From contig OZ076409.1 of the NCBI GenBank assembly GCA_964187785.1, forward strand, positions 5,334,001-5,398,000: a stretch of DNA of 64,000 nucleotides, given 5' to 3'. Both the position numbers and the translations under genes were made by a program. The notes beneath the pieces are model-generated. The model did no database searches. It had not been told where the DNA came from and worked only from the letters and a program-made list of their open reading frames with translations. The DNA comes from Amphiscolops sp. MND2022. Lineage: Eukaryota. The number at the start of each line of letters is the position of its first letter. Position 1 is the first letter of the stretch. This document shows positions 12,001 to 64,000 of this stretch, in pieces.

Positions 12001-12872
12001 CCAACAGAGGGCCACAACACACTATAGCGTCGCTGATGAATATTGTTCAAATGCAGATTGTTGTCGCGACTCGTCTATTGGAAATTTTGCAACAACATTC
12101 TTCATCTGAAATTTCCACAACCACCACAAATGACATCAGCACAATAACCGAGTAATTTTCCTTTGCAAGCTTACCTTGCAACATCAAATCATTACTTTTG
12201 TTCACTACCTACAGTTCAGTTGTTATTTGCTGATTCAAAAAATTTTGACAAAATAAAAAATTTTCATCATGTCATCAACTGCTGTCATCAACCCTGTTCA
12301 TTGTAAAGTGTTGAAATGTTTTAAAGTTGAAGTTAGTACAAAACGTTACCTTTTAATTACAGTTAAAAGCTATCCGTCTTCTTCAGAAAGCTATACAAGT
12401 ATTCAACTTTTCATTTCAAGTTGGATGAAGAGACCAAGGAATACACACCACAAAAGTATTTGACTCTCAAGTTTCAAGAATTAAACAAAATTCCTTGGGA
12501 CGACGTTTACACCAACGTTGTCAATGTCTTCGACTTTTCACTAGACGTTCGCATGCCCTACCACAAGAATGATATGGACTATTTTGACTTCATCTTTGAT
12601 GTTCAAGACTTTATCTCAAACAAATCGAGAGTCGTCAGAGTAGCTTCCAAGCGTTATCCTCAAGCAACCTACTTGTACTTAAAACTCTTTATTCAACATC
12701 AAAAGCGCTGGAAAATGCAACAAACAATAGACATTTCTTGGATGGAGCTATCTCATTTATTGAGTGTTGTCAAAGAGATTCAGAGCTACCCAAATGGAAT
12801 ACCTAAAGAAGGAAGTCCAATCACAGAGACTGGCTTATTTCGTCCAATCGCAACATTGACTAACCCAGAAAT

Positions 12873-12907
<35 letters not shown>

Positions 12908-39900: not shown

Positions 39901-42900
39901 GAGAGTTTTCGGGCTTTTCCTCCTCTTTCTGATAATTTCCATTATTTCGGCAGTTGCGCCCCAGTTAAAATAATCCGGGTCCATTTCGGTCTTAAGTAGA
40001 GGTAAGTTTTGTAATGAATTTGGATTCGAATTCGAGTTTTGATTCAATTTTCGGATTTGACTTTCCATTTTAGCTTTTCGTCGTCGATTATCTTTTGTTA
40101 GTTCCGCTTGATGATGTTTTTTGTTCTTGTCTCGGTTTCTCTCGAAAGTTCTATTCCGCTGTGATTGGTCGTTAAATTTTGTTTCGGTCGTTTTTGTTGT
40201 TTCCGTCGCGTTTTGTGATTGGTCGGCGAATATTGGTCCGTATTTTCTATCTAATTCGGCTTGTTCTGAGAGGATGTTAATTACAAATTGCTCATCGTAA
40301 ACGTCTTCGGTTGTTGCGTTTGCTACCGGATTTCTACTTAGAAAGGCGGTAAACTTTAGATTACTTCCTGCATTGTGTTGAATAGCTATAGTAAAGTGTG
40401 CTAGGCGGTCTAACCATCTAGTCAATCTCGCGCTATATTGTCTATTACATCGGTTCCTTGTAATCAAAGGTTCAAGCGCTTGGTGGTCTGTGTAAAGAAA
40501 GATTCTCTTTCCGTATAAATAAAAATGGAATTTTTTTAAACCCCAGACAACTGCCAAAAATTCTAGTTCTCCGATTGAATAGTTTTTTTCACTGTCGTTT
40601 AAGTATCTGCTACCGAATGCTATCGGTTTAATTTCCCCCTCCTATTGTTTTTGCCATATTGTAATTCCGAGACCGGTTTTGCTTGCGTCGGTTGTCACTA
40701 TGTTTTCTCTATCTTTAGCGTAATGTGCCAAGAAGGGTTCTTCGGTTAGCATTTTCTTTTTATTGTTGAAATCTTCATCTTGTTGTTTTCCCCAATTCCA
40801 TGTGGAATCTTTCTTCAACAGTCTTCGGAGTCTTTCCGTCCTTTCCGATAGTCTCGTTAAGAATTTCGCCAGACATTGAAATGCGCCGAGAAATGATTTC
40901 AGTTGTTTTTGGTTTTCCGGGTGTTTTAATTCCAGTATTGCTTTTACTTTTTCTTTGTTCGGTTTAATTCCCGTTTAATCAATTTCGTGACCAAGCTATT
41001 TGATTTTATTCAAGAAGAATTCGGATTTTCTTTTGCTTGCTCGGTATCCTGCCTTCTCCAATTTTCCCAATATATCGTAAAAAAATTTTTCGTGTTCTTT
41101 TCGGTCACCCCGTGTTACCACTATAATGTCATCCAGCCATGCCGGTGTGGAGTACTCTAGTGTTCGGTCATTTTTTTCTTGGAATATTGTAGGGATATCG
41201 GCGAGACCGTAGAATCCCTTTTTGAATCTGTAGTATCCGCTAAAATTTCCTCCTGTTATTGCGAATACGCAATGTCGGCTTGTTTTTTTAATAGTTTCAT
41301 TCGGCCGTATGCATAATCGAGGTCGATCTTTGATATCCTGAATTCTTTTGTTCGGTGGCTGGTAAATTCCGCCGAGATTTTATTTAGCAGTTCTTCCATG
41401 TTCGGCATGTGTGGTCGGATTTTTATACAGCTGTCATTTAACTTTCTTGAGTCCAATGCTCTTTTACCGACTTGTCGTTTTTTACTGTAATTACTACCTG
41501 TGAAACGAAGCAATCTTCATCTACTTGTTTTACTTTTTCCAAGTGTCCGGTTTCTATCAATTGTTCTAGTTCTTTCCCGACTTCTTCTTGTAGATGTAAA
41601 GGGAACGGTCTTGCTTTTTGTTTCACCGGATAATGTCCGGGTTTTAATTGAATATTTATTTCGGTATCTTTTATCGTGGTGTTGTTCTTGAATAAGTCTG
41701 GAAACTTTTCAATTACTCGTCTCTTTTCTGATTGGCTGTTGTCTTCCAATCGGATGTTTCTGATTGTCAAAATAAATTTCTTCATCCAGTCCATTCCGAG
41801 TAATGGTGTAATGTCATTTCTTTCGGTAATTAGAATTTGCATTTTCTGTTTATTGTTTTCGTATTCAATGTTTGCCGGTATTTTCCCTCGGAATTTCACT
41901 TCATTTTTGTTTACGTCTGGTACCGTTGTTTCACTTTTTGTATCTCGGTTTTTTTCAATTTTTTTCTCGTTGACGGGCATTATTGAAATTGGTGATCCGG
42001 TGTCCACTATAAACTCCTTTTCGATACCGTTTATTTTTATCACGGCTGTCAGGCATTTGTTTCTGTCGGTAATTCTATTTATTCTTTCAATTCTGTGTAT
42101 GCTTGTCTCTGATTTTTCGGATTCTCCTTCAATTGTCCCCGATTTGTCTTCGGTTCCATTGCGTACTTTGCGTTTGTAGTTTTCTCTTTGTCTGCATACC
42201 CGTGCGAAATGTCTTTTCTTTCCGCAATTGTTGCAAAGTTTTCTCAATGCCGGACATTTGTGAGTGGGGTTCCAATTCCGTGCATTGCAAAATTTACATG
42301 GTTTCTCATTTGTAAATTTATTCTTCGATCTTGTCTCACATATTTCCATTCGTTGTATCGGCTCTTCTTTTATTTCCTTTTTTTTTGGTGTGAAATCAGA
42401 GCTTCCGGTATGGTGTTTTTTCTGTTCTTTCTCTCCCACGTGTTTTGTTTGATCATTTCGATTGTTTTTTTTTCAGTTCCAGTTTTTTTCTTTCTTTAAT
42501 TTATCCCGAAGTTTCGTGTCCGTAATTGCGGTCATAAATTTTGAAATCAATAAATCTTCTGCTGTTATTCCTTCAAATGCGCATTCTTTTTCTATTTCGA
42601 TGAGTCTCCGCCAGAAGTCTTCCGGTGTTTCGGATTCAGTTTGTCTTGTCCAGAGGAATTCTCCGCGGTTATGGTAAGTGTTTCGTTTCGGCTCGTGTCA
42701 TTTGTTCTCCGCTCGTGTCGTTTGGTACAAATCTTCGGGGCCGATTCCCCATATAAAGTCTTCTTGAATTTCAGCTTCTTTTCCGGACCAACCGGTTTGT
42801 GTTATTTCGGCTCCCCGTCCTAATTCGGTGATATCCATTTTGTGTTTTCTCTTGGTATATTGCCGAAACCTTTCAAGCCATTGTTTCGGAGTGAAGATTC

Positions 42901-49377: not shown

Positions 49378-49790
49378 TGTCATAGATCAAAAAGTTTAGG
49401 CAGAGCGGTGGAAAAGTTTTATTCATTTTGGCAATTCTTCTAGGAGCTGAAGGGTTCTCTCCTATAGAGATTCTCCGGAAAGTGAGAGTTGATGTTTTGA
49501 ATAATTAATTAGAGTGTTTCAGAGACATGAAGTTATTTACAAATTGTAAGAAGGAGTTTAGCATAGTTGAAGATATACTCAAAATATCGAAAAAAAATGA
49601 TAGAGGTTCTGGTTGAACGTGTTTATAGTTCACTAGTTCTCTCAGTTGTGTGTCGGGTCCACTTCCAGTGCTACAGAGGCTTTCTCATCGTATTCGTGTT
49701 GATCTGTGATTGGCTGCCACATCTGATTAGTCCACGTCTGTCCTGTGAATACTTGAACGAAATTTTGTACATGATTCTTGAATCATGACA
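49378..49790 (-). repeat. 3' LTR of env-Gypsy
   Basis: TGTCAT...ATGACA ends; direct repeat of 62668-63080. Confidence 0.96.
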
Positions 49791-50900
49791 CTACCCACAA
49801 TTGAGAAGTGTGGAATGTCCAGGTGAAGACAGACGGGGTTTGCAGCAGCGTCAGGCGATGAAGAAGAGCGTGAAACACAGAAGGAACCTTTATTACTGGG
49901 ATAGCCGACACAAAAACCCGGGGAAAGGAAAAAGGAAAAATGAAGAAAGTTAAGGAAAAAGGGGAGCCTCAAAAAATGAAATGAAAGAGCCTCTTGAAGA
50001 AAAGCATGAAAAGTAGAAAAGAGTGGCCAAAAGGGCCAAATTGAGCTATACGGTTAGTTCAATAAAGGTGCTAGTTTGTTTATAAAATGTTTGTCGTTTT
50101 AATTTATAAATATTGATAGTAAATAAAATGTTTACGTTGTGTGATGTTTTATCACCGAATTCAGGGGACGTGCGGCGGCACGTGCCTGAAAGTAGGTTTG
50201 CTTTATCAGTCAGTTTCCTGTACGAACTAACTGGGCTTATCTCAGTTTTGTGATTAGCGTATTTGTTTTGTTCGCGGTTTTCTGTTCTTCAGGTACTTAT
50301 GTTTACAAACTGAAGTGGGTACGCGATGAAGGTGTCAACAAAGTTGAGCAGTCAGCTAAAGAGAAAAAGCTATTCAAAGTCCAAAAGAATATATTATGAA
50401 AGTGGTTTTATGATTGGATAAATACAACAACCAATGAAGATGTGAACAGTTTTCATCAGTTGAATAGTTTCAAAAAACGGAGTATAAGGAAGTGTCTTAA
50501 AAATTCAATAACTGGGTGAGAAATGTATGTCTCGATGAGCTGGATGACAAAACAACTCAGCGATGTTCAGAGGCCAAAGTTTACAGTAACAAATAAAGGA
50601 GTCTGTTAAATAGGAAACAGCAGTTGATGGGAGAAGTTTGAAAACTTCCAAAGAAGCAATGAAGAAAATCTTGATACTGATGTATAGCAGAGTCACGACA
50701 AATATATTGAAGAGAGTATTACATGCAAAGTTAGAAGAGAAGCAGTAGGCTCTTCTAATCTGAATGAAAGCGCTGGAATAAAGTTTCGCAATATGGAAAT
50801 GAAAAACAACAAAGAAAGTGTTGCAATCACAGCACTGACATTAATCCCAAAAGGGAGGTTTTGAACTTCTCAGGGAAGATCTCAAAAGAAGGGGGTGATA

Positions 50901-53178
50901 TTACAAGTGAGTGATAGGTTGTTCGATTTCGTCATAAGGGTTACTATGAGTAGTACGCTTTTGCATTTTAGAGGTTGATGGAGTGATTTGGTGGAGTAGT
51001 TTATTTACTTTTGTAACTGGTACTACACAGTGTTTTCCACTGCCAATATTGGGGTCAGCCATGGCATCATGGAAATCATTGTCGTGAACAGTTAAAAGAG
51101 GGCGCAGTTTGATTTTCTTGTTTGTGGTTTTATCATGGTGTGTGAATGAAAGAAGACGTCTTAGAGGGGCGTATCGAAAATACAAGAATGTAAATAGAAT
51201 GTGAAGCGCCATTGATATGATAAAAGAAACTATGCCCATGATTATTGTTGTGCGAAAATTAGCGAGAGAATCAAATTTTTCACTATACATATTGTTCATG
51301 TGAGTCATTTTGATTGCTACTGGTTTAGCAATTTGATGGAGTGTGTCGTCATCTTTTGCGAGTGCAGGTGACACATATTTTATTTCGTTTTGATTGATTT
51401 TAGGAGCGCAATGTTTGCTTGGCTTCTCGTTGCATACATTGGCAATTCATCTATGGATGGGAGAGCACTGAGAACGTTTGATAGAGGAACTGGTAAATCT
51501 ACATTCATGATGGTTGCAGGGATCTTCGAACAGCTCTGCAAATCAGAACGAATCCTGATGTTGGGACCCGAAATCTGCTTTCCACAAGCAAGCATGACGA
51601 CGCATATTCGGCATCCAGGGAAGCTTGAAGATCCAACTGGGGTTGAGGAATTCATATATGATTCTGTTAGAGTGTAGTCAGCGGAAGCGGCGGTTATTAG
51701 CCAAATGCCATATCTGAGGCTAACAGCACGTTCCTTGATGGGCAAGGTCACAGGTTTCACGTCGCATACCTTCATGGCTTGCACTAAGTTCCCAAAGAAG
51801 AGGAGACTGAGACAGGAGGATTGGACTCCTTCTGTCGCAAGACCCTCGTGACAGATGCTATAACGCGAGGAACCAATACACATGTCCAATTGATTCCTGG
51901 AGATAAGGGCTGTTTCTCGACCATCTTCCGATACTGCCAGGTACTCAGATTCAATCTCCCATTGAATCGCTTCAACATCATCCACCTGGGGCATGGGAAG
52001 TGGGAGAGCCTGGTAAGTGGTCATAACCGTCCTTCGGGAAGCCAGAGGTATGGACATTGTCAGCATTAATCCATGTGGCAGTGTCAAGACATCTTGCAGT
52101 AATTGAGCTTCGTAATAGGATAGTAACTCCTGAATCGGAATGGCAAGAGTCAGACGGTCCAAAGCACGGATTTGTTGGATGGCAACTTTATTTAGAACAA
52201 TTTCGAGAGATTCCTTGCTTAAAAGTGACATAGGGACGTACTTGCTGAGAAGAGCTGGAATACTATTCAGCAAGTTTATTCTGTATGCAAAAAGAGCAGC
52301 TCGGTAGCTCTTAATGTTCGAATAAAACAATGAAAGCAAAGAAGAAACCGTATCGAAGTTGAAGTTGATCTGCTGTCTGGAGTACAGCATCTGATCGCAG
52401 TTTCTCATGAGGTGCATGTCCTGTTTGAAGGTATCCATTTGGGTTGCCATTACTTCCCAGTTTGCATTCTGTATAGATCGCATTCCTGAAGATCATGCAG
52501 TTTGTGTAGCTCTTTACTGACGATATAGAACTTGTCATTCGTTTCTTCATTAAATTCTTGGACACTTTCAGACAATGAAGAAGCTACATCAAACAAGCGG
52601 TTAATGTTTGCAGCATTTTTGTCGGATTGACAGCTACCAAAGATTCCACTAAGCCCGCAACTGCCTGGACCCATTGTTATTCCAGCACCGAAAAGTCCAA
52701 TTGCACCCAGTGCGGCGGCAGCAACTGGTACAGCTCTCTTGGTGCGGTCAGCAGAATTGGGAGAAATGGGCTTCAAGAATGAGGCAGTTTCCTGTTGCAT
52801 GGATTGGAGCTCGGCAGTGGCAGCATCTATCTCGTTCTGTACTTCCTTCCTTAGCCAGTCAACATTGAACCCTTCCATGGACAGATTGGTAAATTTCAAA
52901 TTGCAGTTATACGATGACATTTTCCAAAGAATTTCCAAAACAGATGTTAAATGAGTTAATTCCTTTTGAATTTGCACATCGAATTGAGGAAATGGCAATA
53001 GAAACTGGGTATTCACAAATTTTTTGGCTAACAAGATCTTCTTGTCTTCATGAAAGATTATCCTTTTTTTAAGGGGGCCATCAGAGGTGTCATATGGTAA
53101 CACCGGAGATTGTAGGTGTACTATTGACATAAGAGAAAGAAAAACAAGAAGTTTAAAGGTGATGAGGCGAAAGTCCAT
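50901..53178 (-). pseudogene. env: Envelope class I fusion glycoprotein (F-protein-like), two frameshifts
   Basis: Signal peptide MDFRLITFKLLVFLSL; furin site RTKR (52746-52735) followed by fusion peptide AVPVAAAALGAIGLFGAG; heptad-like region; Cys-rich ectodomain; TM IIMGIVSFIISMALHILFTFLYF. Frame breaks near 52485 and 51385. Confidence 0.88.
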
Positions 53179-53767
53179 GGTGGTGTGATCGGGTGATCAA
53201 CTAAATTTGGTTCTTTTGTACAAATTTGGAACTTTTGGTGATTTCTTGAATAAAGTTTAACTTTCAAAGATACTTGTTTCTAGATCGGTTCGCAAAGAAG
53301 TGAGGCGTGGTAACGTTTACATCCGGAGATGAGGAAGTTCGGTCATTTCAATATTTGAACCAAACATTTGTTCATTTGCGATTATATCGAGTAGTTTGTT
53401 TCAACTCTTGAAGTTCCTGCTTTCTTTTAAACAGTCTGTTTATTTGTTTGAGTCTTCTACTTTAGTTTCACAAGTGAGTACACATGTTTGAGCAGTTTTC
53501 GAGTTTTTCAGAGTCTGTGTGTTGTCTTAAGACAAATTTAAAGCTAATCTAAAAAGGAAGTCAAGTTGTCTAAGCTAAAATCTACAGTCAAAGTCTTCTA
53601 AAGTCTACAGTCAAAAGATGTGTGACATCGTGTCCTTCTTGAAGTTCGTTTTGTTGTGTTGCCCTGGAAGGACTTACATAAAAGAAGGAGATCGTATGAT
53701 CTCTTTTAAACGAGAAAGGGACAGCAGGTGCCCTCCTCTCATTATGCAGTCGGAGTCAAAAGTTGAC

Positions 53768-53869
53768 ATGGAGTCAGTGGTTGTCATCTTTGTCATCATA
53801 GGGATGATCAGTCTCTTGCTAATGTATTATATGTACAAAGTGTATAAAGCTTTTGGGCGTCAGCGTTAG
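53768..53869 (+). CDS. Possible antisense single-TM micropeptide (MESVVVIFVIIGMISLLLMYYMYKVYKAFGRQR)
   Basis: Hydrophobic helix plus basic tail; upstream in-frame ATGs exist; short, could be chance. Confidence 0.25.
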   Translation: MESVVVIFVIIGMISLLLMYYMYKVYKAFGRQR

Positions 53870-54163
53870 TGTACAGTTAGAGAGTCAAGTCAGATGTCAG
53901 TCAGTTAAAAACTAAACAATTTCTAAACTATAGATGTATCTAGTGTATAACTGTAGTTAGTTGTATTTTTATAGTTTTATATAGTTTTGTAGAGTTTTGT
54001 ATAGTTAGTTTTTGTATATAAGTGTAGAGTTGTATAATCGAGTTTGTATATAGTCGCGAAATTCAGTATTTCGTGAAGAAAGAGTTTTCTATAGGATCTA
54101 ATAGTTATAGTGAAGTTTTTGGCTTGATTTTCGTCAGTTTTGCTCATTTAGGAATTGTAAATC

Positions 54164-55382
54164 ATGGATATGTATCTGCGGGAAGCTATTATGAAATATC
54201 TAGAGACTCAAGAAGTCAACGATGTTGTCTTGGCTACCGCAGAGGAAAGGAAGAATTTTCGTCGGTTCTGTGATACCCTTATCTTGAAAGACAACAAATT
54301 GCTGTGCAAGGGAAGGTCTGGTGAAGAACCGAAGGTGATCCCTACCCCTCAACAAGTGGACGAATGTCTATTTGAACGTCATGTGGGGCTTTTGGGTAAC
54401 CACCTAACGGACAGACAAACCCTTGTGAAGGCATTGTCTAATGCAGGTTATGGGTATCCGGTCCGATTTGGGGGGCTCGCAGCTCTTGTGGACGAGTGAG
54501 TAAAAACGCGAATTTTGCACAATGTTGGACAGCAGGCAAGTAGAAATGGCATGATCATTTACAGGTTTCTCCGGAATTGTCAAACCTGTTTCTTTTCCGG
54601 GGTCGCAAGACCAAGGGAAAGAATGTTTCCTGTGTCAGTGGCTAGGCGAATTGAGCTTTGTGCGAAATTCAACTATACCTGTCAATGGGAGGAGGTTGGA
54701 TCCTCTAGGACAGGCGAGACAACGATGGAGTTAGACAGTCCACGGAAGAAAGAGCCCATTGGAAAACTAGCGGAGGTCGGAGGGGAGTGTTTCTTCCCCT
54801 CCATATATTACCTACTAGTCGGGCGAAAGTCTGGGAAGAGAATATCACATAGATGGAAAAAAACTAAGATTTTATTTTGTTTTTTTTTTTGTAAAAAGTG
54901 AAAGCGACTAATATGAATGTGTGTGCAGATCGACATAGCACTAACGAGACCAAGAAGTGTCGTGCTATTCGGATAGCGGCCATGGAAGTAGCGAAAGACG
55001 CCGCGTTCAAGAAGTTCTGCAAAGAAACTCTTGGAACGGCAATTAGCGACTTCATGGCTCAGGAATGTGCCAAAGCTTCAGTAGCCGTCACTGAGCACGG
55101 GTTTAGGAAAAATATGGTCAGAATGAAAAGTAGTAGAGTACATAGAGGCGAAATGTGTAAAAAAATGCAACATTTTCACAGATGCTGGCCACAGCAACAC
55201 TCCTGCAGACTGACATTGCAGTATACTGGCAGTATCAGAATGGAGGGGGCTGGGTCAGATACCGTTATGGAGAGGAGTCAAAGGGCCGAACTGGAGTATT
55301 CCTGCTTCAGTGCATTCAGGGCGGTCGAGGCCACTATGGTGCATTCCATTGTGAACCCCTATGGGACTATCCTGAAGCTTAG
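54164..55382 (+). CDS. Antisense spliced gene: integrase-type HHCC Zn-binding domain fused to OTU-like cysteine protease
   Basis: Exon 54164-54495, intron 54496-54564 (GTGAGT...TACAG), exon 54565-~54821, exon 54929-55116, intron 55117-55181 (GTCAGA...CACAG), exon 55182-55382. Motifs ERH..GNH...CQTC, GGECFFPSIYYLL, ATATLLQTDIAVY...W..Y...GHY. The second donor is unresolved. Confidence 0.62.
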
Positions 55383-56159
55383 TGAGTGAAAACACAAAAA
55401 AAAAAACGAAAAAAGAAGAAATTGATTGTTCGGGGAACATTGTGTATTTTTTCGCAGTGTAATGCCTTTAAAACGACATCGGGGGCTCACGCAGGAACCC
55501 TGGGACAGCGACGAAGCTGAGGGAGCGGTGGGAGGGAGTTCCACGGCTATTTGACGACAATAAATGTAAGTTAAAATCATCCAAAAATTTGAAAAGCATG
55601 TATAAGGTCAGTTTTTTGACGGAAAAATCAATAAAAATAAAATAAAATTGTACCAAATATAGGGTTATAGGGTACCATTAGACGCGTATTGAAGAGAGAA
55701 ATCCAATGAAGCTATTTGCAAGGGTCTACGACTAACCAATGTGGAAAAATAGGCAAAAAAACTGAAATTTTCCATGTTTGGGTCAAAAATGGGACGTAAG
55801 ACAAGAATTTAAAAATTTTTGTCTCCGATTTTCGATTTTTATGGCTTAATCGGTCTATGGGGTCAAAATATGACAATTGGGCAAAAACCAGAGGTATCCA
55901 AAGTGATTTGGTGAAGTTAGAGACCAAAATGTGCGGCTAATCTGAGGTATTTTTCGTAAGCAAACTTTTGGTCAAATTTTCACTATGGAAAAGTACGGGG
56001 GGGTCGAAAAGACAATAGGAATGGATTCTCCTGGGGCTAACGAAGATAACGGTACCAAAATTTTGCGGCTCGGATAAATATTCGTGGAGAAAACTTGAAA
56101 AAATGACGAAAAATGTCACTTTTTTGGTCAAAAATGGTCGTTTTTTGGGATTTTGTGGA

Positions 56160-59100
56160 CTATTTCCACGGGGGATTATGGAAAAATGAGGTTTTTTTCG
56201 GTTTTTGGCGTAATCTGGTATCACGCTGAGTCAATTGTGAGGGTTGTTGGGGCGTACGATCATATATCGATGGTATGATCACACCTGGATAGCGTTCTTG
56301 AAGTGTTAATTCAGCATTTGGAGTTTGGGCTGAGGAGTCACAAAGTGAGCTTCTAGGCGGCGGAGGGAGGTAAAATGGTGATTGGGCCTCAAATTGAGGG
56401 TGGCTAAGATGAAGTGGAGTGCTAGAAGCCATGTGGGAGGTCTGAGTCAAAATTCGAGGTCTAGGTGACATAGTACGTGAAATAGGAGAAATCGGTCTAG
56501 GTATTCTAGATTGAAAAGAAGGTGGTGGTGACACCATAGTCGGTAAAGGGGCACTCGGAAGGGTGCTCGGGTGGGTATAGGTTACAGTGGTGTGTGTTGA
56601 ACCACATTGAGGGCTATAAGAAGGTCTATTGAGACAACGGTCCGCTCGGGACAAAGTTTGACTATCAAAACCCAAAAATGTTGAATTTGATGAATTTATG
56701 TCTGATGAAGAATATATACGGGAAGGTGTTCGAGATCTAGTCAAAATGCTAGAGGAAGGGTCACACAGCGGTGGAGTTGCATGTGAAACCACAAAAGCAT
56801 CAGAATTGTCAGTAGACGACGAATCATCACTAGAACTGGTGTCTAAAGCGACATCATCTAGTGTGAAATTGGGGTTTACCGGGAGTTCATTAAGATCATC
56901 CTGTGGCGGTGCCTGGTTCAAAGGCGGAGCCATGGGAGGCTGGGGTGCCAAAGGAGGCGCGGGAGGTGCAGGTGGGGGTGCTACACGACGCGGAGTGTAA
57001 TAAAATAAAACACTCGGAGCATCAGTAATTTCGTCTGTAGGTGTAAACGACTTGTCAGTTAAAAGATCAGGTAATGTACTATCAAAAAGGGACGGTTCCG
57101 ACGTGTGTCTAGTGGACGGATCCGGAACGAAGTTATTTTGATGGATTTGGGCTAAATCTTCAATCTGATACTGAGGGTTAACGGGTCTAAGTCGGATACG
57201 GTGTACACATTGTGTGTAGTTCGTACCAACTTTTCGAACAATATAGTTGGAGTTTGTCAAAACTTGTTCTATTCGGTATAGAGGAAGCCATTTGGCTAAA
57301 GATTTTCCCATATGATCGTTAACATTGGATAATTTGGGATTTAAAAGTAGACAGTAACGGTGTTTTGTCAAAGGTGCGGCGTTCGCTTTTCTATCGTAGA
57401 AGTGTCTATATTTGTTATATGCGGTGATAGTGGCATCACGCGCAGCAGAGAACACTTCCTTCATCCGATCTTGCATTGAACTAGTGAATTCGTATCTGGT
57501 TTCAAGGTTCTGGAGCGTTCGTAAATTAAAACGGACATCTAGCGGTTTTACCGGTTTACGGCCATGGAAAAGATAAGTTGGAGTACAACCTATTGATACA
57601 TGGTATGACGTATTGTGAACAAAAGTCGCTAAGTCAACATACGTGTGCCAGTCCTTTTTGATTTTGTTTTCATAAATTCCGAGATACTGCTTGAGAGACG
57701 CATGAGTGCGCTCGACGGAGCCAACTGTTTGTGGATGTTTTACAGTGGCGTATTGCATTGTTATTTCAAGTAGTTTTGACAATTCAGTCATTTTTTAGCA
57801 GTAAAAGCAGTTCCCATGTCAGAGAGTACAGTTTTGGGTATGTATGATGTTCGCATAAAAAGGTGAAAAAGCTGTTTGGCAACATTTGGGGAACTTGCAT
57901 TTCGTAGAGGTATCGCAAAAAGATATTTTGAAAAAACATCCTTAGCAGTCAAAATATGAGTAAAGCCACCTGAATCTGGCAATTTCCCAACAATATCGAC
58001 CTGAAGCAAGTCTCCTGGGAAATGCTGGTCCACAGCTAGGGACAAAAGCGGAGGCTTCAATGTGGCATGTTTGACTGGTTTGACTTGCAAACACGAAAAT
58101 CAGTTCTTGATATAGTTCGTCAAAAATTCTACAAAATTCGGGAAATAAAATTTTTGTCTAAAAATCTGAGCGGTTTTTGTGATACCGATGTGTCCTGCTG
58201 TTTTACTGTTGTGAACACGGTACAGAAGTTCTGTACGTAAGTGAGCAGGGACAACATATTGGCGGGTGATTGTTTTTCCAGTATCATCAAAAAACTTTCG
58301 GTATAACACACCTTGGTAATTTTCCAATCGATTAAAGTGTTTAAGGTTTTTACGTAGTTCTGAACTCAAGTATGGAGATGGGTCTGGAGGATGGGTTTCC
58401 ATCCAATGTAACACTAGTTTGATGTTAGCATCTTTTTGTTGTTCCTCTCGGAGATTTAGAGAAGTCATCTTGGTAGTTAAATCAAATTCATCAAGAGGAT
58501 TGGGAGCATGCAAAGCGTTCAGTGATTCAAAGGCTTTTGAGCAAGTGTTTCCAATTTTAAACGGCATGCAATCGTAGCGGATTGCGTTCACTGAATTATC
58601 TGGTACTTGCATTCCCATTTTTAGCGTTACGTTTTTGACAGGTATTTGAGAATTAAAGCGAAGTTCAAGCTTTGTATGGGGGTGGACATGAATCCTAGAC
58701 AAGTAATCCGCAGCAGCATTGGCTTTGCCCGGAATATGTCCAAGGACAAAATTAAAATTCAACACGTGGTCCACACAGGTGCAAAGACTAGATGGTATGG
58801 TCTTAGCTTGAAAGAAGCGTGTTAAACTACGGTTATCAGTTAAGACGAGTACTGGTTTAGTGCTACCCCACAAATTGTGTGCAAAAGCGTCAAAAGCAAA
58901 ATGCACGGCCAAAAATTCTTTAGCGTAAATAGACAGTTTCAGGTACGTAGGCGTGAAAATTTTCGATCCAAAAGAAACGGGTACGTAAAATTTATAAGTT
59001 TTACCTGATTGGTCAGTAATGTAATCTTCTATCATTAGTACATAACCGGCAGCATAGAAACTTGCATCGGTTAGGATTACATACTGTGCGTTAGCTTTTG

Positions 59101-61197
59101 GTAATCTAAGAGACAATGTACAAGCTTGTTCAAGATCTTTTCGCAAGGTTTCAATTTGTTTATGGTGTTCGTCTGTAAGAACAGTTTCGTTTTCTTGGCG
59201 TAAAAGTTTGTAAAAAGGTAGAAGTTTTTCTCCTAACTTAGGTATGAAAGCTCGAAAATATTGGAAAAACCCAATAAATCGGCGAATTTGTTTAGGCGTT
59301 TTCGGAACTTTGAGCGTAGACAAAAAGTCAGTTACTTTTTTCTTGTCTGGTTGCATACCTTCGTTGGTGATTGTGTTACCGAGAAAGGTCATTTCTTTCA
59401 ATCCAAATTCACATTTACTTGGAGTAAACTTCAAACCTGCCTTCTCTATGCAAACAAAAATTGCTTTCAAGTTGTTAATGAATTCGTCAAAGGTGTTAGC
59501 AGCGGTGCCTAAGTCATCTACGTATTGAAAGCATTGGTCAGCTACAATACAAGGGTAGAGATATTTACGCATAAAAGAGCTAAAAGCACTAACTGAGCGA
59601 CTAAGTCCTTGTGCTAAGCGTAAATAGGCAAAAGTACGCGACAAAAAGTTAAAAGAAAGAAGCTGCACTGACAGAGGATCTGCCATTTGCAGTACGTGAT
59701 ATGCTTGGCTACAGTCAAGCTTTGCAAAGAATTTCTTTCCCGCTAAGTGTGCGCTTACGTCTGCTAACGTTGCAATCGGAAAATTATGGTTATCATAGTC
59801 ATGTCGAATAAGGTGATTTATTCGACGAAGATCTACCAAAAGACGGAGTTTACCAGAAGGTTTTCGAACTGCAAAGATGGGGCTAGAGTATTTCGAATAC
59901 TTCAATGTGGTTATCACACCCCAATACTGTAACAAGGCTAGTTCTACTAACACTTCATCACGGTAATGAATCGGTGTAGGCGGTCCTTGAGTGTACATAG
60001 GTTCATCATGTTCTGGCGTTAGTTTAACTTTGAAATCAACATTTTTTCCAATGTCTAACCTATGTCTAGCAAAAATGTGGTGGTAGTCTAAGAGAAGGTT
60101 TTCTACTGTACGTCTTTGTTCACTATTAAACACGGAATTTTTCCAAGGAAATTGAGCTAAGAATTTCTGTTTGTCTAAGGCGTTTGAGATAGGATCTAGT
60201 TTCTCTTCTTTTTTCAGTTGAACAATTTCATCGTAAATGCGTTTTTCAATTCCAGTCAATGTTTCGGGATTAGAACAATTTTCGGGAGTTGGAAACCAAA
60301 GCTCATCTGTCGACGGTGAAACTTTGATCTCCGAATCCTGAATAAGCGCATTAATGTTCTGGTTAAAATAATTCGACAAAAGTTGCGGGTTTATAGGCTG
60401 TAGGTATTCGGCTTGTTTCGGTGTTAGTATCGTGATTCGTGCAATAACAGAGTTTTTCTGAACGGTAACTTTATGAGGCAGAACATTCAAAATGGCAAGT
60501 GAAACATCTTGTTCTGCTTTAAGAGTTATGAGTGCACTAGTGACACAAAGTCCTGTTTGGTTTTCAAATTTAGCATTAGGTTCAATAATGGCTACAGTTC
60601 CATCTGGGTAGGAACAGTTTGGAAAAGAACATTGAACTATTTCAGTAGTGTTCGGGTTTATCGATAAGGAACTGTTATTTCTCAAAAAATGGTTCTTTTT
60701 CGAAGAAACAGCACTAATTTTTCCATTTGTATGGATTTTTTCGGTGAGTTGAAGAGTTAAATCGGCAGTTTAAGAGTGCGACTCTTTGGGTGTATAGAAA
60801 TGTCGTTTTTCTCAAAAAATGGAAGTCCAAGAATCGTTTGATTCATTTTCTTCAGTAGTAAGAAAGTATCTGTAAATTTTTCGTTTGCAATGTTGAAAGT
60901 GGCTTTAAATGTGCCATACGTAGGTACAAGTGATCCATTTGCTACTTTAATGGAGCTTGGTGTTGGATCGAAATTGGTTATACTGGTTGGGCTTTCTTTT
61001 TGAAGTTTTTTGAAAATGTTTAGAGGCATAGCGCTACAAAATGCGCCTGTATGAATAAGAGCTTTAATAGGAAAAGTAAAGTTAATAGGTACTGAGAAAA
61101 GTGAAGTGCGAGGCTTTGAGGATAAAACATTAATAGAGGAAAAAGATGAAGGATTAGGTGAGGCAGAAAAAGAACGGGTTATGTGTGGCTTACCTAG
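56160..61197 (-). pseudogene. pol: pol: protease (catalytic D->H), possible dUTPase-like relic, RT, RNase H, integrase with long Pro/Ser-rich tail
   Basis: LIHTGA, VDLRRIN, KLDCSQAY, YVDD, LTDAS, TDNRSL, H-x6-H...KN*FSC, QVDIVG, SDMG, VERTH. Frameshifts near 60760 and 57790; TGA at 58102-58100. Confidence 0.95.
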
Positions 61198-62421
61198 TTT
61201 TTTTGGTTCTGTGCCATATTCGCATCATAGTAGGGTGACCAAGGTTGGGTCATCGGGTTGTATTGTGGCATCATCGGTGTAGTCATCTGAGGTTGAGAGA
61301 ATGACGGTTGGGAAAATGACGGTTGGGGTTGGTAGTTGGAAAATTGTTGATAAGGTAATTGAGGCAGTTGGCGATTTTGTGGGCGAAACCAACATTGGGC
61401 AATTGTATGTCCAAATTTATTGCAGTGACTACAATGGCGTTGAGAAGATTGAGCATTTCGATTGTTCTGGTTATTTCGTCCATTTTGCCAATTATTGTTG
61501 CATTTCCCATTATTGTTATTGTTGCAATTGTTATTGTTTTGGCGATTATTCCAGTTATTATTTCGCTTCTGGTTATTCCAATTCTGGTTATTACGTGGCT
61601 TGTTTTGTTGCCGATTTTGATTTTAAGAGTTTTGCTTATTAGTTTTCTGCTGGCTTTGATTTTGATTTTTCTGCATCAGCTGATTTATTGTAGGCTGAAT
61701 GGTTTTGGTTAAATCTCTGATTTCTTCAGAAATTTTTGCAGTCTCTTGTTTTCAAAGTATCATGAGCAACAGAGAGTGCTTGCAATCCCGACAAAAGTTC
61801 TTTATTTGAAGCTGGACTTACTTCATTGAATGCCGTATCATCATCCTCTGGATAGAGGCGATCAACGATCATTCTACTGGCAGCTTTTGCGCAGAGATCC
61901 TCGATTGTCGTGTCTTCTGGCTGTGTCATCAGAAATCTTCTGAGTTTGATTGGCATTCCGTTTATGAATGCTTCTCGTACTCGTCTCGCTCTCCCGAGTG
62001 CTCTATTTTCAGCAGCAACTGCGGGTCGTCCTCCTGCAGCAGCTCTGGCAACGACGTTAGGGTACGCCTCCAATGCCAAACGTTGGAGGTCAGTGAGGAA
62101 GTCTTGGGCGCTTTCCTCGGACGATTTCAATTTTCTGGCTGAGAAGATGAGTTTCTGCAATTGAACGCGCTGGTCGTTCTGGTATCTCTCACGAAGTGCA
62201 GCTACGGCGAGATCATAGTCAACTCTCGTGGCTTCGGGCAGTTGATCGAAGAATGTTAATGCACCACCCTTAAGGTGCAAATGCAGATACTGATGACGAT
62301 CATTATCGGCAATGCCTGCAATTTGGATGCAGCTTGCAAGTTGTCTGAGGAACTCATTTAAATTTTCTTTTTCTGTACCTTTGAAGGGTTGAAGATTTAC
62401 AAAAGGTTGAATTGCGGCCAT
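61194..62421 (-). pseudogene. gag: gag (frameshift near 61740), Asn-rich linker, CCHC knuckle
   Basis: FKG...LHLKGGALTFF...L.ERY Gag pattern; CSHCNKFGHTIAQC near 61395-61436; ends CAA AAA AAC TAG. Confidence 0.88.
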
Positions 62422-62667
62422 TGAGAAAGAAGTATTGTTTTTGTTTTCAAGAGCGATTTGAATTTGTCAGAAGAAAGCAATGAGATTTTGTTGAAATGAA
62501 TTTTATTATTCAGTCAGCAGCAGAAGTGAAGAGAAGAGGTTTTGTCAGCATTATCAGCATGTTATTGTTAGTGAAGTGAGTTTATTGTAGAGAGAGTGGC
62601 ACTTGAGCATTGTTATATTTTAAGTGATTTTGGTTTCTGGAGAAAAGGAGAATAGCTCCTGTCACCA

Positions 62668-63080
62668 TGTCATAGATCAAAAAGTTTAGGCAGAGCGGTG
62701 GAAAAGTTTTATTCATTTTGGCAAATCTTCTAGGAGCTGAAGGGTTCTCTCCTATTGAGATTCTCCGGAAAGTGAGAGTTGATGTTTTGAATAATTAATT
62801 AGAGTGTTTCAGAGAGATGAAGTTATTTACAAAATGTAAGAAGGAGTTTAGCATAGTTGAAGATATACTCAAAATATCGAAAAGAAATGATAGAGGTTCT
62901 GGTTGAACGTGTTTATAGTTCACTAGTTCTCTCAGTTGTGTGTCAGGTCCACTTCCAGTGCTACAGAGGCTTTCTCATCGTATTCGTGTTGATCTGTGAT
63001 TGGCTGCCACATCTGATTAGTCCACGTCTGTCCTGTGAATACTTGAACGAAATTTTGTACATGATTCTTGAATCATGACA
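62668..63080 (-). repeat. 5' LTR of env-Gypsy
   Basis: TGTCAT...ATGACA ends; followed on the - strand by a TGG-initiated PBS. Confidence 0.96.
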
Positions 63081-64000
63081 CATCGCCACTACAAAATTGA
63101 ATTTTTCGTTTGATTAAAAATGATCATGCTCCGTTGAAATTGATTAAAAGTGTGGCTCTTTTCTCTGAACGTTCAAGAAACGGTCATAAGTAGGCTCCAA
63201 ACAAACAAACAAACTATCCCCAGTGGCTGACAGTTACTTGTGCGAGTTCACGTGGAGACAACAAATCAAAAGATTTATTTGAAGAAATGTTAAACGATAT
63301 AGCCAAATATAATCCTTTATGTTGAATTTTTTTCTTTGAAATTGTGGGGAAAAGGAAAAAGAGCCGCAATTCTTATCATTAAAAAACTCACATCATCAAT
63401 TTGAAAAAAGACAACTTTTATTGGACAAACAGTTCATTGCAAAAAAAGAAAATGTTAAAACTCCATTTTGAGTTCAATCATTGAAAATATGCGTTGCAAT
63501 TTTACTATGGCAACTCACTTCAACTTTCTCGACAATTCTGATTGGAAGTAGTTTTGTAGTCGGTGCCTTTCTCAAGAAAAGAGCCGACTATAGTCATGAC
63601 TTTTCGTCAGTGTTTTTTTCGATACACCTTAAGTGACCCAAATAGTTCTACCAAAAGTTCTGCAAAATTTTAAATTGTACCTGTTGGCCAAACTTTTCAC
63701 CAAAGGGTCCCTCCTTCGTTTTTTTTGGAGTTTTGCGACAGAATGGATGAAAAATCTCAAAGCGTCCCCCCTGGCACGCCAATTCGGTCCAACTTTTGGT
63801 TTTTCGGGTGCTGTAGAAGAGAATACTTTGATACATTTCAGAAAAAGCCATTTTCGAGTCTCAAGGGTACCTCCGGGTATTTTTGGCTCCCAAATATTTC
63901 AAACACTCTGTTTTTTCTTCAACCTTGAGCGAGGAGCCGACTTGAGTCCAAACGAGACTACCCCTCTTGATTTATAAGCCTCTGGGTGGATGTAATTTAT

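Follow-up and report, generated by a model that had tools for sequence, protein, structure and literature searches.

A spliced antisense gene with an integrase-like N-terminal half and a divergent OTU-like C-terminal half in env-bearing Ty3/gypsy-type elements of Amphiscolops sp.

Animal LTR retroelements are usually described as gag-pol machines, env aside. They seldom carry accessory genes for enzymes, and most known antisense accessory genes belong to plant elements, where their function is unknown, or to a few complex retroviruses. A locus of Amphiscolops sp. MND2022 raises the question of whether such a gene may be carried by an animal element. Between the pol and env genes of an LTR retroelement located in the analyzed window (64,000 nucleotides of contig OZ076409.1, positions 5,334,001–5,398,000), on the strand opposite to the element's own genes, there are several short open reading frames (ORFs) separated by intron-like sequences. 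The original prediction interpreted them as a spliced accessory gene combining an integrase-type HHCC zinc finger with an OTU-like protease or, alternatively, as a nested, internally deleted Ginger transposon. Our analysis makes it probable that this is a spliced antisense accessory gene of an env-bearing gypsy-type element, uniting an integrase N-terminus with a divergent OTU-type domain and acting in the manner proposed below.

The host element

The host element is a 13.7-kb LTR retroelement (49378–63081) encoded on the minus strand. Two 414-bp direct repeats of 98.55% identity, the 5' LTR (62668–63081) and the 3' LTR (49378–49791), surround gag, protease, reverse transcriptase, RNase H, and integrase in this order, with an env-like ORF downstream, which is the organization of an env-bearing Ty3/gypsy-type element. 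The gag-like ORF (61726–62466) gave weak Pfam matches (DUF1759, E 4.6e-5; Retrotrans_gag, E 0.034), and the aspartic protease region (60757–61224) gave a match under the cut-off (gag-asp_proteas, E 0.0039). In the pol frame (58100–60769), delimited by Pfam and the ORF table, RVT_1 (4e-18), RT_RNaseH (1.7e-13), and the start of the integrase zinc finger (Integrase_H2C2, 3.2e-10) were recognized. The integrase core (rve, 1.1e-10) and a long C-terminal tail (56160–58099) come next, and the env-like gene (50901–53196) follows, all on the minus strand. The translations of the latter begin with a signal-peptide-like sequence and contain an RTKR site, behind which comes a hydrophobic stretch rich in Gly and Ala; another hydrophobic segment is located at the C-terminus. 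The env-like pieces had no Pfam, NCBIfam, or PDB sequence match, and the name "env" is therefore a putative one, given for these features and for the selection described below.

The copy in the window is a provirus that has decayed. Its pol frame stops within the zinc finger, the integrase core and tail are divided between two frames (57788–58099 and 56160–57794), the env-like gene is spread over three (52450–53196, 51380–52492, and 50901–51446), and the donor of one intron of the antisense gene is non-canonical.

Two other conserved features were found in the spacer between pol and env. The first is a second ORF of the plus strand (53618–53869; 83 aa), Cys-rich, with one hydrophobic segment and a basic tail, for which no Pfam or NCBIfam match was obtained. 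Its start and stop are retained in most of 14 aligned copies, its dN/dS between families is 0.20–0.22, and a comparable ORF is present upstream of the antisense gene in the most divergent family (L049). The second is a non-coding block, with no strand assigned (55740–55960), between the 3' end of the antisense gene and the pol stop, which shares 76–85% identity with the 74% family, compared with 56–68% in the adjoining non-coding sequence; it has stops in all six frames and a pN/pS of 0.64–1.05.

Structure of the antisense gene

The antisense gene occupies positions 54164–55554 of the plus strand and comprises five exons, together encoding 361 aa, and four short introns. A candidate TATA box (TATATAAG, 54015–54022, plus strand) is predicted about 140 bp 5' of the ATG at 54164. 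Exon 1 (54164–54495) encodes an N-terminal helix, the hairpin region "KNFRR..L.LKDNKLL", and both His residues of the HHCC motif. It is followed by intron 1 (54496–54564; 69 nt) and by exon 2 (54565–54833), in which the CxxC of the same motif is connected by a linker to the Cys motif GGECFF(P/S)SIYYLLVGRKS. Beyond intron 2 (54834–54928), exon 3 (54929–55116) would encode the helical middle of the OTU-like domain, and beyond intron 3 (55117–55181; 65 nt, GT..AG), exon 4 (55182–55381) carries the helix-strand "LATATLLQTDIAVYWQY", further strands, and the FHCEP motif (His-x-Glu). Intron 4 (55382–55457) separates it from exon 5 (55458–55554), which encodes an acidic C-terminal tail and ends with TGA (55552–55554), just 3' of which there is an AATAAA polyadenylation-signal motif (55559–55564, plus strand).

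Both the sequence and the ORF table place the plus-strand ORFs where the original prediction had located them, and the two introns named in it (introns 1 and 3) are bounded by GT..AG and connect the frames in the stated way. The intron set was incomplete, since intron 2 had been left unnamed and intron 4 had been missed, and there are five exons instead of four. The TAG at 55380–55382, previously considered the stop codon, overlaps the GTGAGT donor of intron 4. Exon 5 was matched also in the divergent family L050. The donor of intron 2 reads GG in the window copy and in one other copy, GC in one, and GT in 27 of 30; the window copy is therefore probably splice-defective at this intron.

Conservation and selection

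The conservation profile falls at each of the four introns. In 14 of 30 copies, among them the family of 74% identity, exons 1–4 measure exactly 332/269/188/200 nt, and the lengths of introns 1–4 vary among the 30 copies (52–77, 77–117, 58–65, and 69–82 nt, respectively). The splice dinucleotides are largely retained: GT..AG in 30/30 copies for intron 1, the acceptor AG in 30/30 for intron 2, GT in 24/30 and AG in 30/30 for intron 3, and GT in 30/30 and AG in 28/30 for intron 4.

A comparison of dN/dS across copies, proposed earlier as a check, gave 0.076–0.082 for the spliced frame at a dS of 1.13–1.19 (two copies of different families); between families, the antisense gene is under strong purifying selection. 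In the same pair, the p-distance of the introns is 0.45, i.e., they diverge freely, and the dN/dS values for comparison are 0.10 for the N-terminal part of env and 0.26–0.28 for the pol tail. Within families, dN/dS of the antisense gene is about 0.3, which shows that many of its copies are decaying.

These data bear on the simplest alternative, according to which a non-coding spacer contains the ORFs and splice-like sites by chance. It is contradicted by the exon/intron conservation pattern, the invariant exon lengths, and the dN/dS of 0.08 at a dS of about 1.2, and we rejected it, as this coding pattern of the gene differs from the rest of the spacer, which has stops in six frames and a pN/pS near 1. 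The probability that chance explains the locus is, in our opinion, negligible, and the pattern of sequence change reads as that of a real, spliced gene.

Distribution among copies and families

The region 54100–55500 has 43 matches in the genome (73–100% identity). Alignment of other copies of the LTR family had been suggested as a way of verifying the prediction, and 29 of the 30 copies fetched (73–100% identity) align past the gene into pol and/or env, the segment being collinear with these flanks. The search with exon 3 yielded 137 genome matches, and the exon-4 peptide gave 150 scored matches among 272 candidates (100–44% identity, mostly over residues 1–64/66). The divergent families retain the intron positions and phases, and in four of them (L045, L046, L047, and L050) the gene is arranged tail-to-tail with the pol C-terminus. 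Shared by the copies and families related to this one and kept by purifying selection, the antisense gene belongs to the element in all families examined. The homologous exons with the same intron positions, found genome-wide down to 44% identity, indicate that it is old.

A search for intron-less copies revealed open frames at exons 3 and 4 reaching at most 212 aa, which were rejected as cases of intron loss because they are in-frame read-throughs of introns. The protein databases searched contain the antisense protein in exon-sized fragments only. Exon 1, compared with longer proteins, matched two unnamed ENA ORFs reading through intron 1, and the exon 1+2 read-through protein P0001, compared with 1.84 billion representatives, gave 45 matches to unnamed, exon-sized ORFs of 50–220 aa.

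The distribution of the gene is also relevant to the possibility that the segment is a dead passenger, i.e., a nested, internally deleted DNA transposon of the Ginger1 type. Given the composition of Ginger1 transposases described in passages of PMC2836005, the domain order would fit one deprived of its DDE core. The collinearity of the segment with pol and/or env in 29/30 copies of several families, and its tail-to-tail arrangement with pol in far more divergent families, speak against this, as do the dN/dS of 0.08 and the retained splice sites. Moreover, terminal inverted repeats (TIRs) are absent, in agreement with the original observation: a search inside 53100–56250 found A/T-rich chance inverted pairs only. 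Neither DDE nor GPY/F lies between the zinc finger and the OTU-like domain. The nested-transposon reading was rejected, and we consider it very improbable. The same evidence (collinear copies, lack of TIRs bounding the segment, and purifying selection) favors an accessory gene, as first proposed. An ancient capture from a Ginger-like source is possible as the origin of the gene, which would not make it a dead relic.

The integrase-like N-terminal half

In the spliced translation, the first splice completes the H-x6-H...CxxC motif, as had been predicted. The pattern H-x(3-7)-H-x(20-35)-C-x2-C, preceded by the hairpin region "l.l.dglLy...vvP", is conserved across families, with the second Cys of the CxxC lost in the L050 family. 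The profile comparison (hhalign) with the N-termini of gypsy integrases of the same genome provided support for an integrase-type HHCC (P 1.2e-4, score 30.3), with His, His, and CxxC in register; none of 60 column shuffles reached this score (mean 11.5, maximum 17.3). All 30 ESM-Atlas feature matches were clusters of Integrase_H2C2 (PF17921; score 0.91–0.92), which we treat as a lead only. The Pfam Integrase_H2C2 model had no match on exon 1, P0001, or the L027 ORF; the domain is split by intron 1, and both P0001 and the L027 ORF carry a 25-aa intron read-through inside the zinc-binding domain. The absence of a DDE core behind the HHCC motif also stood, as there is no rve match and the interval from CxxC to the Cys motif measures about 65 aa. 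These results support, at the level of sequence, the assignment of the N-terminal half to the N-terminal region of integrases, i.e., an HHCC zinc-binding domain together with the segment preceding it, without amounting to proof.

The OTU-like C-terminal half

In 12/12 aligned exon-2 peptides, the Cys of the motif G-G-[EK]-C-[FW]-F-[SA] is invariant. The motif aligns with GDGNC of Pfam-positive OTU domains, although the first Asp and the Asn of the consensus D-G-N-C-[LF]-F-R are not kept (GGEC). The FHCEP motif of exon 4 falls opposite EHYSPL and NHFEPV in OTU domains; across 10 peptides, down to 44–45% identity, its His56 never varies, and conservation is 90% or more at both Cys57 and Glu58.

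The C-terminal half was compared by hhalign with four Pfam-positive OTU domains of the same genome, one of them being the BEL-type ORF described below, itself possibly a relative. With shallow alignments (Neff about 2), as in all our profile tests, this gave P 5.8e-6 and a score of 31.7 over 136 columns, with the Cys motif, helix-strand, and His motif in register. None of 100 shuffles reached the score (mean 2.9, maximum 12.4), the reversed control gave 3.3, and the local score was 39.5 versus a shuffle maximum of 24.6. At the profile level, the prediction of an OTU-like domain is thus supported for the Cys box, the helix-strand core, and the domain as a whole, and failed for the His box "GHY", which is not conserved (RFR in several families); the conserved His is that of FHCEP.

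The Pfam OTU model (PF02338) had no match on exons taken singly or on two-exon read-through ORFs of other families, the domain being split over exons 2–4, and neither Pfam nor NCBIfam returned any family for single exons, for these read-through ORFs, or for P0001. In the genome-wide scan, this model gave 23 matches, all away from the element copies. A model of a natural read-through ORF (exon 3, intron 3, and exon 4), based on a partial-row alignment, had a mean pLDDT of 49.8, too low to be of use, and the ESM Atlas contained no usable match for this ORF. Taken together, the data support, and do not prove, that the C-terminal half is a very divergent OTU-type cysteine-protease domain, whose candidate catalytic residues are the Cys of GGECFFS and the His-x-Glu of FHCEP.

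A possible intronless relative in BEL/Pao elements

An HMM built from seven spliced proteins was compared with ORFs around the OTU matches. None of the hits was significant (E 0.07–0.27), and the top five were OTU-bearing ORFs. This comparison led to an intronless ORF of 325–347 aa, located antisense and just 3' of pol in BEL/Pao elements of the same genome, which begins at the inner edge of the 3' LTR. Pfam matches of this ORF were OTU (6e-6) and Integrase_H2C2 (0.1). Its alignment with the window protein is collinear and covers 273 columns at 25% identity (P 0.001–0.003; compared exon by exon, P 4.9e-4 and 0.0029). Its structural model matched the N-terminal regions of Ty3 and PFV integrases (Z 6.5 each), followed by OTU domains (Z 3.9–5.4), all of these scores being middling and below 8; the OTU part of the model is of low confidence. 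In protein databases, the ORF matched six unnamed ENA proteins, and among PDB sequences OTUD3 alone (E 0.063). BEL/Pao elements, which are unrelated to the host element, carry an antisense ORF of the same architecture.

This relative has to be taken into account when weighing the more serious alternative, in which the gene is real and selected, and its OTU-like half lacks protease activity. The integrase N-terminal domain would then act alone, e.g., in dominant-negative or copy-number control within integrase multimers, or the protein would be a ubiquitin-binding adaptor. Such a view would be consistent with a domain so divergent that Pfam misses it, with the change of D-G-N-C to G-G-E-C, and with the N-terminal region being the best-folding part of the BEL-type model (pLDDT 80–90). 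On the other hand, no positions are better conserved, down to 44% identity, than the putative catalytic Cys and the His-x-Glu, and the BEL-type relative keeps the canonical GDGNC...HVD and exceeds the Pfam OTU cut-off. We consider this alternative rather unlikely, though deserving attention, and retain the reading of an accessory gene with an OTU-type protease domain.

Comparison with known systems

The closest counterparts are Ginger1 transposases, which, according to passages of Bao, Kapitonov and Jurka 2010 (PMC2836005), are composed of YPYY, H2C2, DDE, and GPY/F followed by a C-terminal OTU or Ulp1 domain, with 0–4 introns; OTU domains fused in cis are mentioned there also for animal Helitron proteins. 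Common to Ginger1 and the antisense gene are a gypsy-integrase-type N-terminus with H2C2, an OTU domain, introns in the coding sequence, and invertebrate hosts. As described in the same passages, however, Ginger1 retains DDE and GPY/F, is bounded by TIRs and a target-site duplication, and transposes as DNA, whereas the antisense gene lacks the DDE core, has no TIRs that we could find, and is situated antisense in LTR retroelements, by which it is propagated.

Another similar case is aORF-3R of plant Ty3/gypsy elements, an extra antisense ORF downstream of pol with a proposed role like that of retroviral accessory genes (passages of Vicient and Casacuberta 2020, PMC7264820). The location of an extra antisense ORF 3' of pol in Ty3/gypsy elements is shared. 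In the passages concerned, no enzymatic domain is assigned to the plant ORFs, and the text of the review nowhere uses the word "intron", whereas the gene described here has four conserved introns, an architecture of two recognizable domains, and another small antisense ORF as its neighbor.

The antisense gene also invites comparison, as an antisense spliced gene, with HBZ of HTLV-1. HBZ, a bZIP transcription factor, is encoded by a spliced transcript of the provirus minus strand, which starts in the 3' LTR and is independent of the 5' LTR promoter. The BEL-type ORF, with its start bordering the 3' LTR on the inside, is similar to HBZ in this respect. The two genes are unrelated in sequence, and the antisense gene is located between pol and env and apparently encodes an enzyme.

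OTU proteases of viruses are known from the nairovirus L protein, arteriviruses, and tymoviruses. As in these viruses and in Helitrons, a mobile element would encode its own OTU-type protease, but there the domains are parts of large sense-encoded polyproteins, and here a small separate protein is led by an integrase N-terminal domain. It is worth mentioning that in the same genome the unusual H-x-E-P recurs (NHFEPV versus FHCEPL) in a 2244-aa ORF (L034) for which Pfam reports an OTU match. Searches of the full-text literature other than Repbase Reports and subscription journals yielded no account of an accessory gene in LTR retroelements that is antisense or bears an OTU domain, and a text search found no mention of OTU in PMC6338049 or PMC5408684.

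Proposed function and significance

On the reading that we prefer, the antisense gene would be transcribed from proviral DNA, from its own promoter directed away from env, and then spliced. As its introns are antisense in the genomic RNA of the element, they would never be removed before reverse transcription and would therefore be passed to every new copy. The integrase-like N-terminus may join the element's integrase, the intasome, or LTR DNA, and the OTU domain may clear integrase, Gag, or a host factor of ubiquitin or of a ubiquitin-like mark, by which the pre-integration complex would be protected or host restriction blunted. Both the deubiquitinase activity and the docking to integrase are what we infer from the architecture; the OTU domain would work in trans here, in contrast to its cis fusion in Ginger1 transposases and animal Helitron proteins.

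A broader scenario, which we put forward tentatively and hold to be less probable than the accessory gene itself, assumes a whole clade of endogenous-retrovirus-like elements of invertebrates with an antisense cassette, consisting of a small membrane protein and a spliced, trans-acting deubiquitinase that reaches the intasome via its borrowed integrase N-terminus, with an intronless version in BEL/Pao. The conserved introns would imply uptake of the gene in DNA form, a Ginger1-like transposon being one possible source, and the cassette would counter host ubiquitin control.

What distinguishes this locus is an antisense gene with four conserved introns retained across many diverged element families. 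It constitutes a natural intron experiment, as introns can survive retrotransposition in the antisense orientation only, and it carries a lesson for annotation, since gene finders and repeat maskers will overlook such genes. Its architecture suggests that integrase and the ubiquitin system are directly connected, in a way open to testing. The OTU domains of Ginger1 and Helitron transposons are fused in cis, and the antisense gene offers their counterpart acting in trans; with a small separate protein, it can be tested why mobile elements so often carry ubiquitin-like proteases. If the antisense-cassette scenario is true, it would exemplify gene flow from a DNA transposon to retroelements, as well as "complex" retroelements opposing ubiquitin-based host control.

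Structure of the antisense gene

Between the pol and env genes of the minus-strand LTR element, the plus strand carries a five-exon gene (54164-55554) with a spliced frame of 1086 nt (361 aa). In the original prediction, four ORFs within 54164..55382 were joined through two introns (54496-54564 and 55117-55181); the ORFs are indeed present on the plus strand there, and both introns are of the GT..AG type, while the extent of the gene had to be corrected, as a further intron was unnamed, the stop was misplaced and the fifth exon was missed. Comparison with other copies located intron 2 at 54834-54928 (+). Its donor is GT in 27 of 30 copies (mostly within G|GTAAGA), GC in one, and GG in one other copy and in the window copy, which is why it could not be named from the window alone; the latter copy is therefore probably incapable of correct splicing. 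The previously proposed stop (TAG, 55380-55382) overlaps the GTGAGT donor of intron 4 (55382-55457, +), which is followed by exon 5 (55458-55554, +), ending in TGA, and by AATAAA (55559-55564, +).

Conservation and selection

Searching the 1.07-Gb genome at the DNA level with the region 54100-55500 yielded 43 matches (73-100% identity), and 30 loci were fetched with 1.5-kb flanks and compared with the window. As for the question whether sister copies always carry the segment, in 29 of the 30 the alignment with the window runs past the gene to reach pol and/or env, the exception (L021) being aligned over 53961-55779 only. Conservation falls at all four introns, and again directly after the stop. 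Exons 1-4 measure exactly 332/269/188/200 nt in 14 of the 30 copies, including the family with about 74% identity to the window gene region, and intron lengths vary within 52-77, 77-117, 58-65, and 69-82 nt (introns 1-4, respectively); a spliced frame without a stop was found in 14/30 copies. In the 74% family (L027-L030), AA occupies the aligned donor of intron 3, with a GT in frame 9 nt further downstream; this family may use the shifted donor, with three codons added.

For two copies of different families, the dN/dS of the gene is 0.076-0.082 at dS 1.13-1.19 (Nei-Gojobori), and the intron p-distance is 0.45; values for the env N-terminus and the pol C-terminal tail of the same pair are 0.10 and 0.26-0.28, respectively. 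Within families the ratio for the gene is about 0.3, as expected from decay of copies after insertion. The possibility that the gene is a passenger insertion in the element was rejected on the grounds of the collinearity of 29/30 copies, the between-family dN/dS of about 0.08 and the absence of terminal inverted repeats bounding the segment. Three things about the gene are shown: it belongs to the element, it is under selection, and its introns are conserved.

The family reaches deep into the genome. Among 272 candidates for the exon-4 peptide there were 150 scored matches, graded from 100% to 44% identity and nearly all covering residues 1-64/66, i.e., the extent of the exon, and the exon-3 peptide gave 137. 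The gene is also present in nine divergent loci, where its introns keep their positions and phases. Four of these loci (L045, L046, L047, and L050) have, on the other strand and converging on the gene, a pol C-terminus with the common ending '...RDTRLRPKP.RT.FF..KPWK'. The exon-3 and exon-4 matches and divergent loci examined included no intron-less copy; the longest open frames around exons 3/4 (up to 212 aa) were considered as intron loss and rejected, being in-frame intron read-throughs. In the protein collections searched, the gene is represented solely by exon-sized fragments without names.

Once its two plus-strand ORFs are set aside, the spacer between pol and env is interrupted by stops in every one of the six frames, and its pN/pS is close to 1. 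The second of these conserved antisense ORFs (53618-53869, +), which precedes the main gene by about 300 bp, encodes an 83-aa, Cys-rich protein with a single hydrophobic segment and a tail of basic residues; it matches no family, and its between-family dN/dS is 0.20-0.22. The most divergent family (L049) has a comparable small ORF ahead of the gene, and both genes may form a two-gene antisense cassette. A non-coding block (55740-55960), with stops in six of six frames, is 76-85% conserved across element families vs. 56-68% for its surroundings; it may act in cis, as RNA or as DNA, for the retroelement or for the antisense gene.

The host element

The host, a minus-strand LTR retroelement of 13.7 kb, is bounded by 414-bp direct repeats (49378-49791 and 62668-63081; 98.55% identical). 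Pfam matches between the LTRs (gag-like ORF, aspartic-protease region, RT, RNase H, integrase zinc finger, and integrase core) assign it to the Ty3/gypsy type. The gene at 53196-50901 (-) begins like a signal peptide, contains an RTKR site with a hydrophobic stretch rich in Gly/Ala behind it, and has a C-terminal hydrophobic segment; by these features it is a putative env, which evolves under purifying selection (dN/dS 0.10 between families) and has no match to families or PDB. Despite the LTR identity, the window copy is decayed: in the pol region (56160-60769, -) the open frame stops within the zinc finger of the integrase, which continues in two further frames, and env (50901-53196, -) is broken across three frames.

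Elsewhere in the window, a second Ty3/gypsy-type pol fragment (39085-42472, -) has RT_RNaseH, Integrase_H2C2, and gag-asp_proteas matches, and an ORF cluster (7064-20423) with DNA_pol_B_2 (8543-10300, -) and Pox_A32 packaging-ATPase (13823-14626, +) matches suggests a Polinton/Maverick-like element.

Domain architecture of the encoded protein

The predicted H-x6-H...CxxC motif is, as proposed, completed by the first splice, and H...H...CxxC is conserved across families (the second Cys is lost in one). Profile comparison with gypsy integrase N-termini of the same genome gave a score of 30.3 (P 1.2e-4; 60 column shuffles: mean 11.5, maximum 17.3), and both His and the CxxC are aligned in register. 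The read-through protein of exons 1+2 had 30 ESM-Atlas feature hits, all of them Integrase_H2C2 clusters (score 0.91-0.92), which we treat as a lead towards this identity. The lack of a DDE core holds: CxxC and the next motif are only about 65 residues apart, and no rve match was obtained.

The C-terminal half contains three conserved motifs, GG[EK]C[FW]FS[ST]I[YF]YLLVG[RK]KS, L..TA..L..D..VYWQY, and FHCEP, which align, in this order, with the Cys loop, helix-strand core, and His motif of four Pfam-recognised OTU domains of the same genome. Global profile comparison with these domains gave a score of 31.7 (P 5.8e-6; 100 shuffles: mean 2.9, maximum 12.4), the local score was 39.5 (shuffle maximum 24.6), and the reversed control scored 3.3. 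The OTU-like reading is thus supported by profile similarity but not by the Pfam OTU model, which matched nothing on exons, two-exon read-through ORFs, or element copies in the genome scan, where pieces rather than the whole spliced domain were scored. The GHY originally taken for the His motif is not conserved; the conserved His sits in FHCEP, and H-x-E-P is common to the gene and one comparator, a 2244-aa OTU-bearing ORF (L034). A predicted model of low confidence (mean pLDDT 49.8) for one natural ORF of the family also weighs against the OTU reading.

So does the divergence from the canonical OTU motif DGNC, of which the gene lacks D and N. The main rival explanation accepts the gene as real and takes its OTU half as inactive, the protein being an integrase-binding regulator; all three motifs of this half are kept down to 36-45% identity. 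An integrase N-terminal region joined to an OTU-like domain is, judging by these comparisons, the probable architecture.

Open frames of 2244-2816 aa with Pfam OTU matches (L034, L040, C2:103635724, and C1:3609704) are, going by the literature, probably Helitron-type proteins. An OTU-positive 511-aa ORF on the small contig C1676 (L032) has a translated stretch rich in Ala, Arg, and Pro, unlike the window with its GC of about 38%, and might derive from another organism in the assembly.

An intronless relative in BEL/Pao elements

The Pfam OTU scan also revealed an intronless ORF of 325-347 aa (OTU, E 6e-6, above the cut-off; Integrase_H2C2 weak, E 0.1), antisense and tail-to-tail with pol in BEL/Pao-type elements (L041 3745-10000 with L066, genome C1:86419000-86432500; also L042-L044). 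These have 307-bp LTRs (97.7% identical) and DUF1759, Peptidase_A17, Integrase_H2C2, rve, and DUF5641 matches. The stop-to-stop frame opens within the 3' LTR, and the likely ATG lies about 50 bp inside its inner edge. The ORF is collinear with the window protein (25% identity over 273 columns, P 0.001-0.003; against single exons, P 4.9e-4 and 0.0029), and both start with MD..L...I..(W/Y)LE.

The AlphaFold model of this ORF is confident for residues 31-143 only. In a Foldseek-independent structure search, its top matches were Ty3 integrase (7q5b_A, Z 6.5, 94 aligned) and PFV integrase (4bac_A, Z 6.5, 81 aligned), both covering residues 32-135, followed by OTUD3 (Z 5.4), DUBA (4.9), OTUD1 (4.8), nairovirus OTUs (3.9-4.6), and yeast Otu2 (4.5). 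These Z values are middling, yet integrase and OTU families occupy the top of the list for the predicted model.

Possible function and relation to known systems

We regard a real, conserved, spliced antisense accessory gene as very likely. It would be transcribed from proviral DNA by a promoter of its own, for which TATATAAG, about 140 bp upstream of the ATG, is a candidate sign. Its introns, being antisense in the genomic RNA, would escape splicing before reverse transcription, and this would be the sole orientation allowing a retroelement to retain an intron-bearing gene. Through its integrase-like N-terminus the protein may reach the integrase, intasome, or LTR DNA of the element, where the OTU domain would strip ubiquitin or a ubiquitin-like mark. 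That the protein is an active deubiquitinase acting on the intasome is plausible, if tentative.

Ginger1 transposases (PMC2836005) share the same domains with the gene but retain a DDE core, carry TIRs and are mobile as DNA, whereas the gene has none of these defining features; capture from a Ginger-like source is possible. Antisense extra ORFs occur in plant LTR elements, their function not being established (PMC7264820). The full-text literature searched, which does not include Repbase Reports and subscription journals, describes no accessory gene of LTR retroelements that is antisense or OTU-bearing. The gene combines two known kinds, i.e., the accessory genes of retroelements and the OTU domains borne by transposons.
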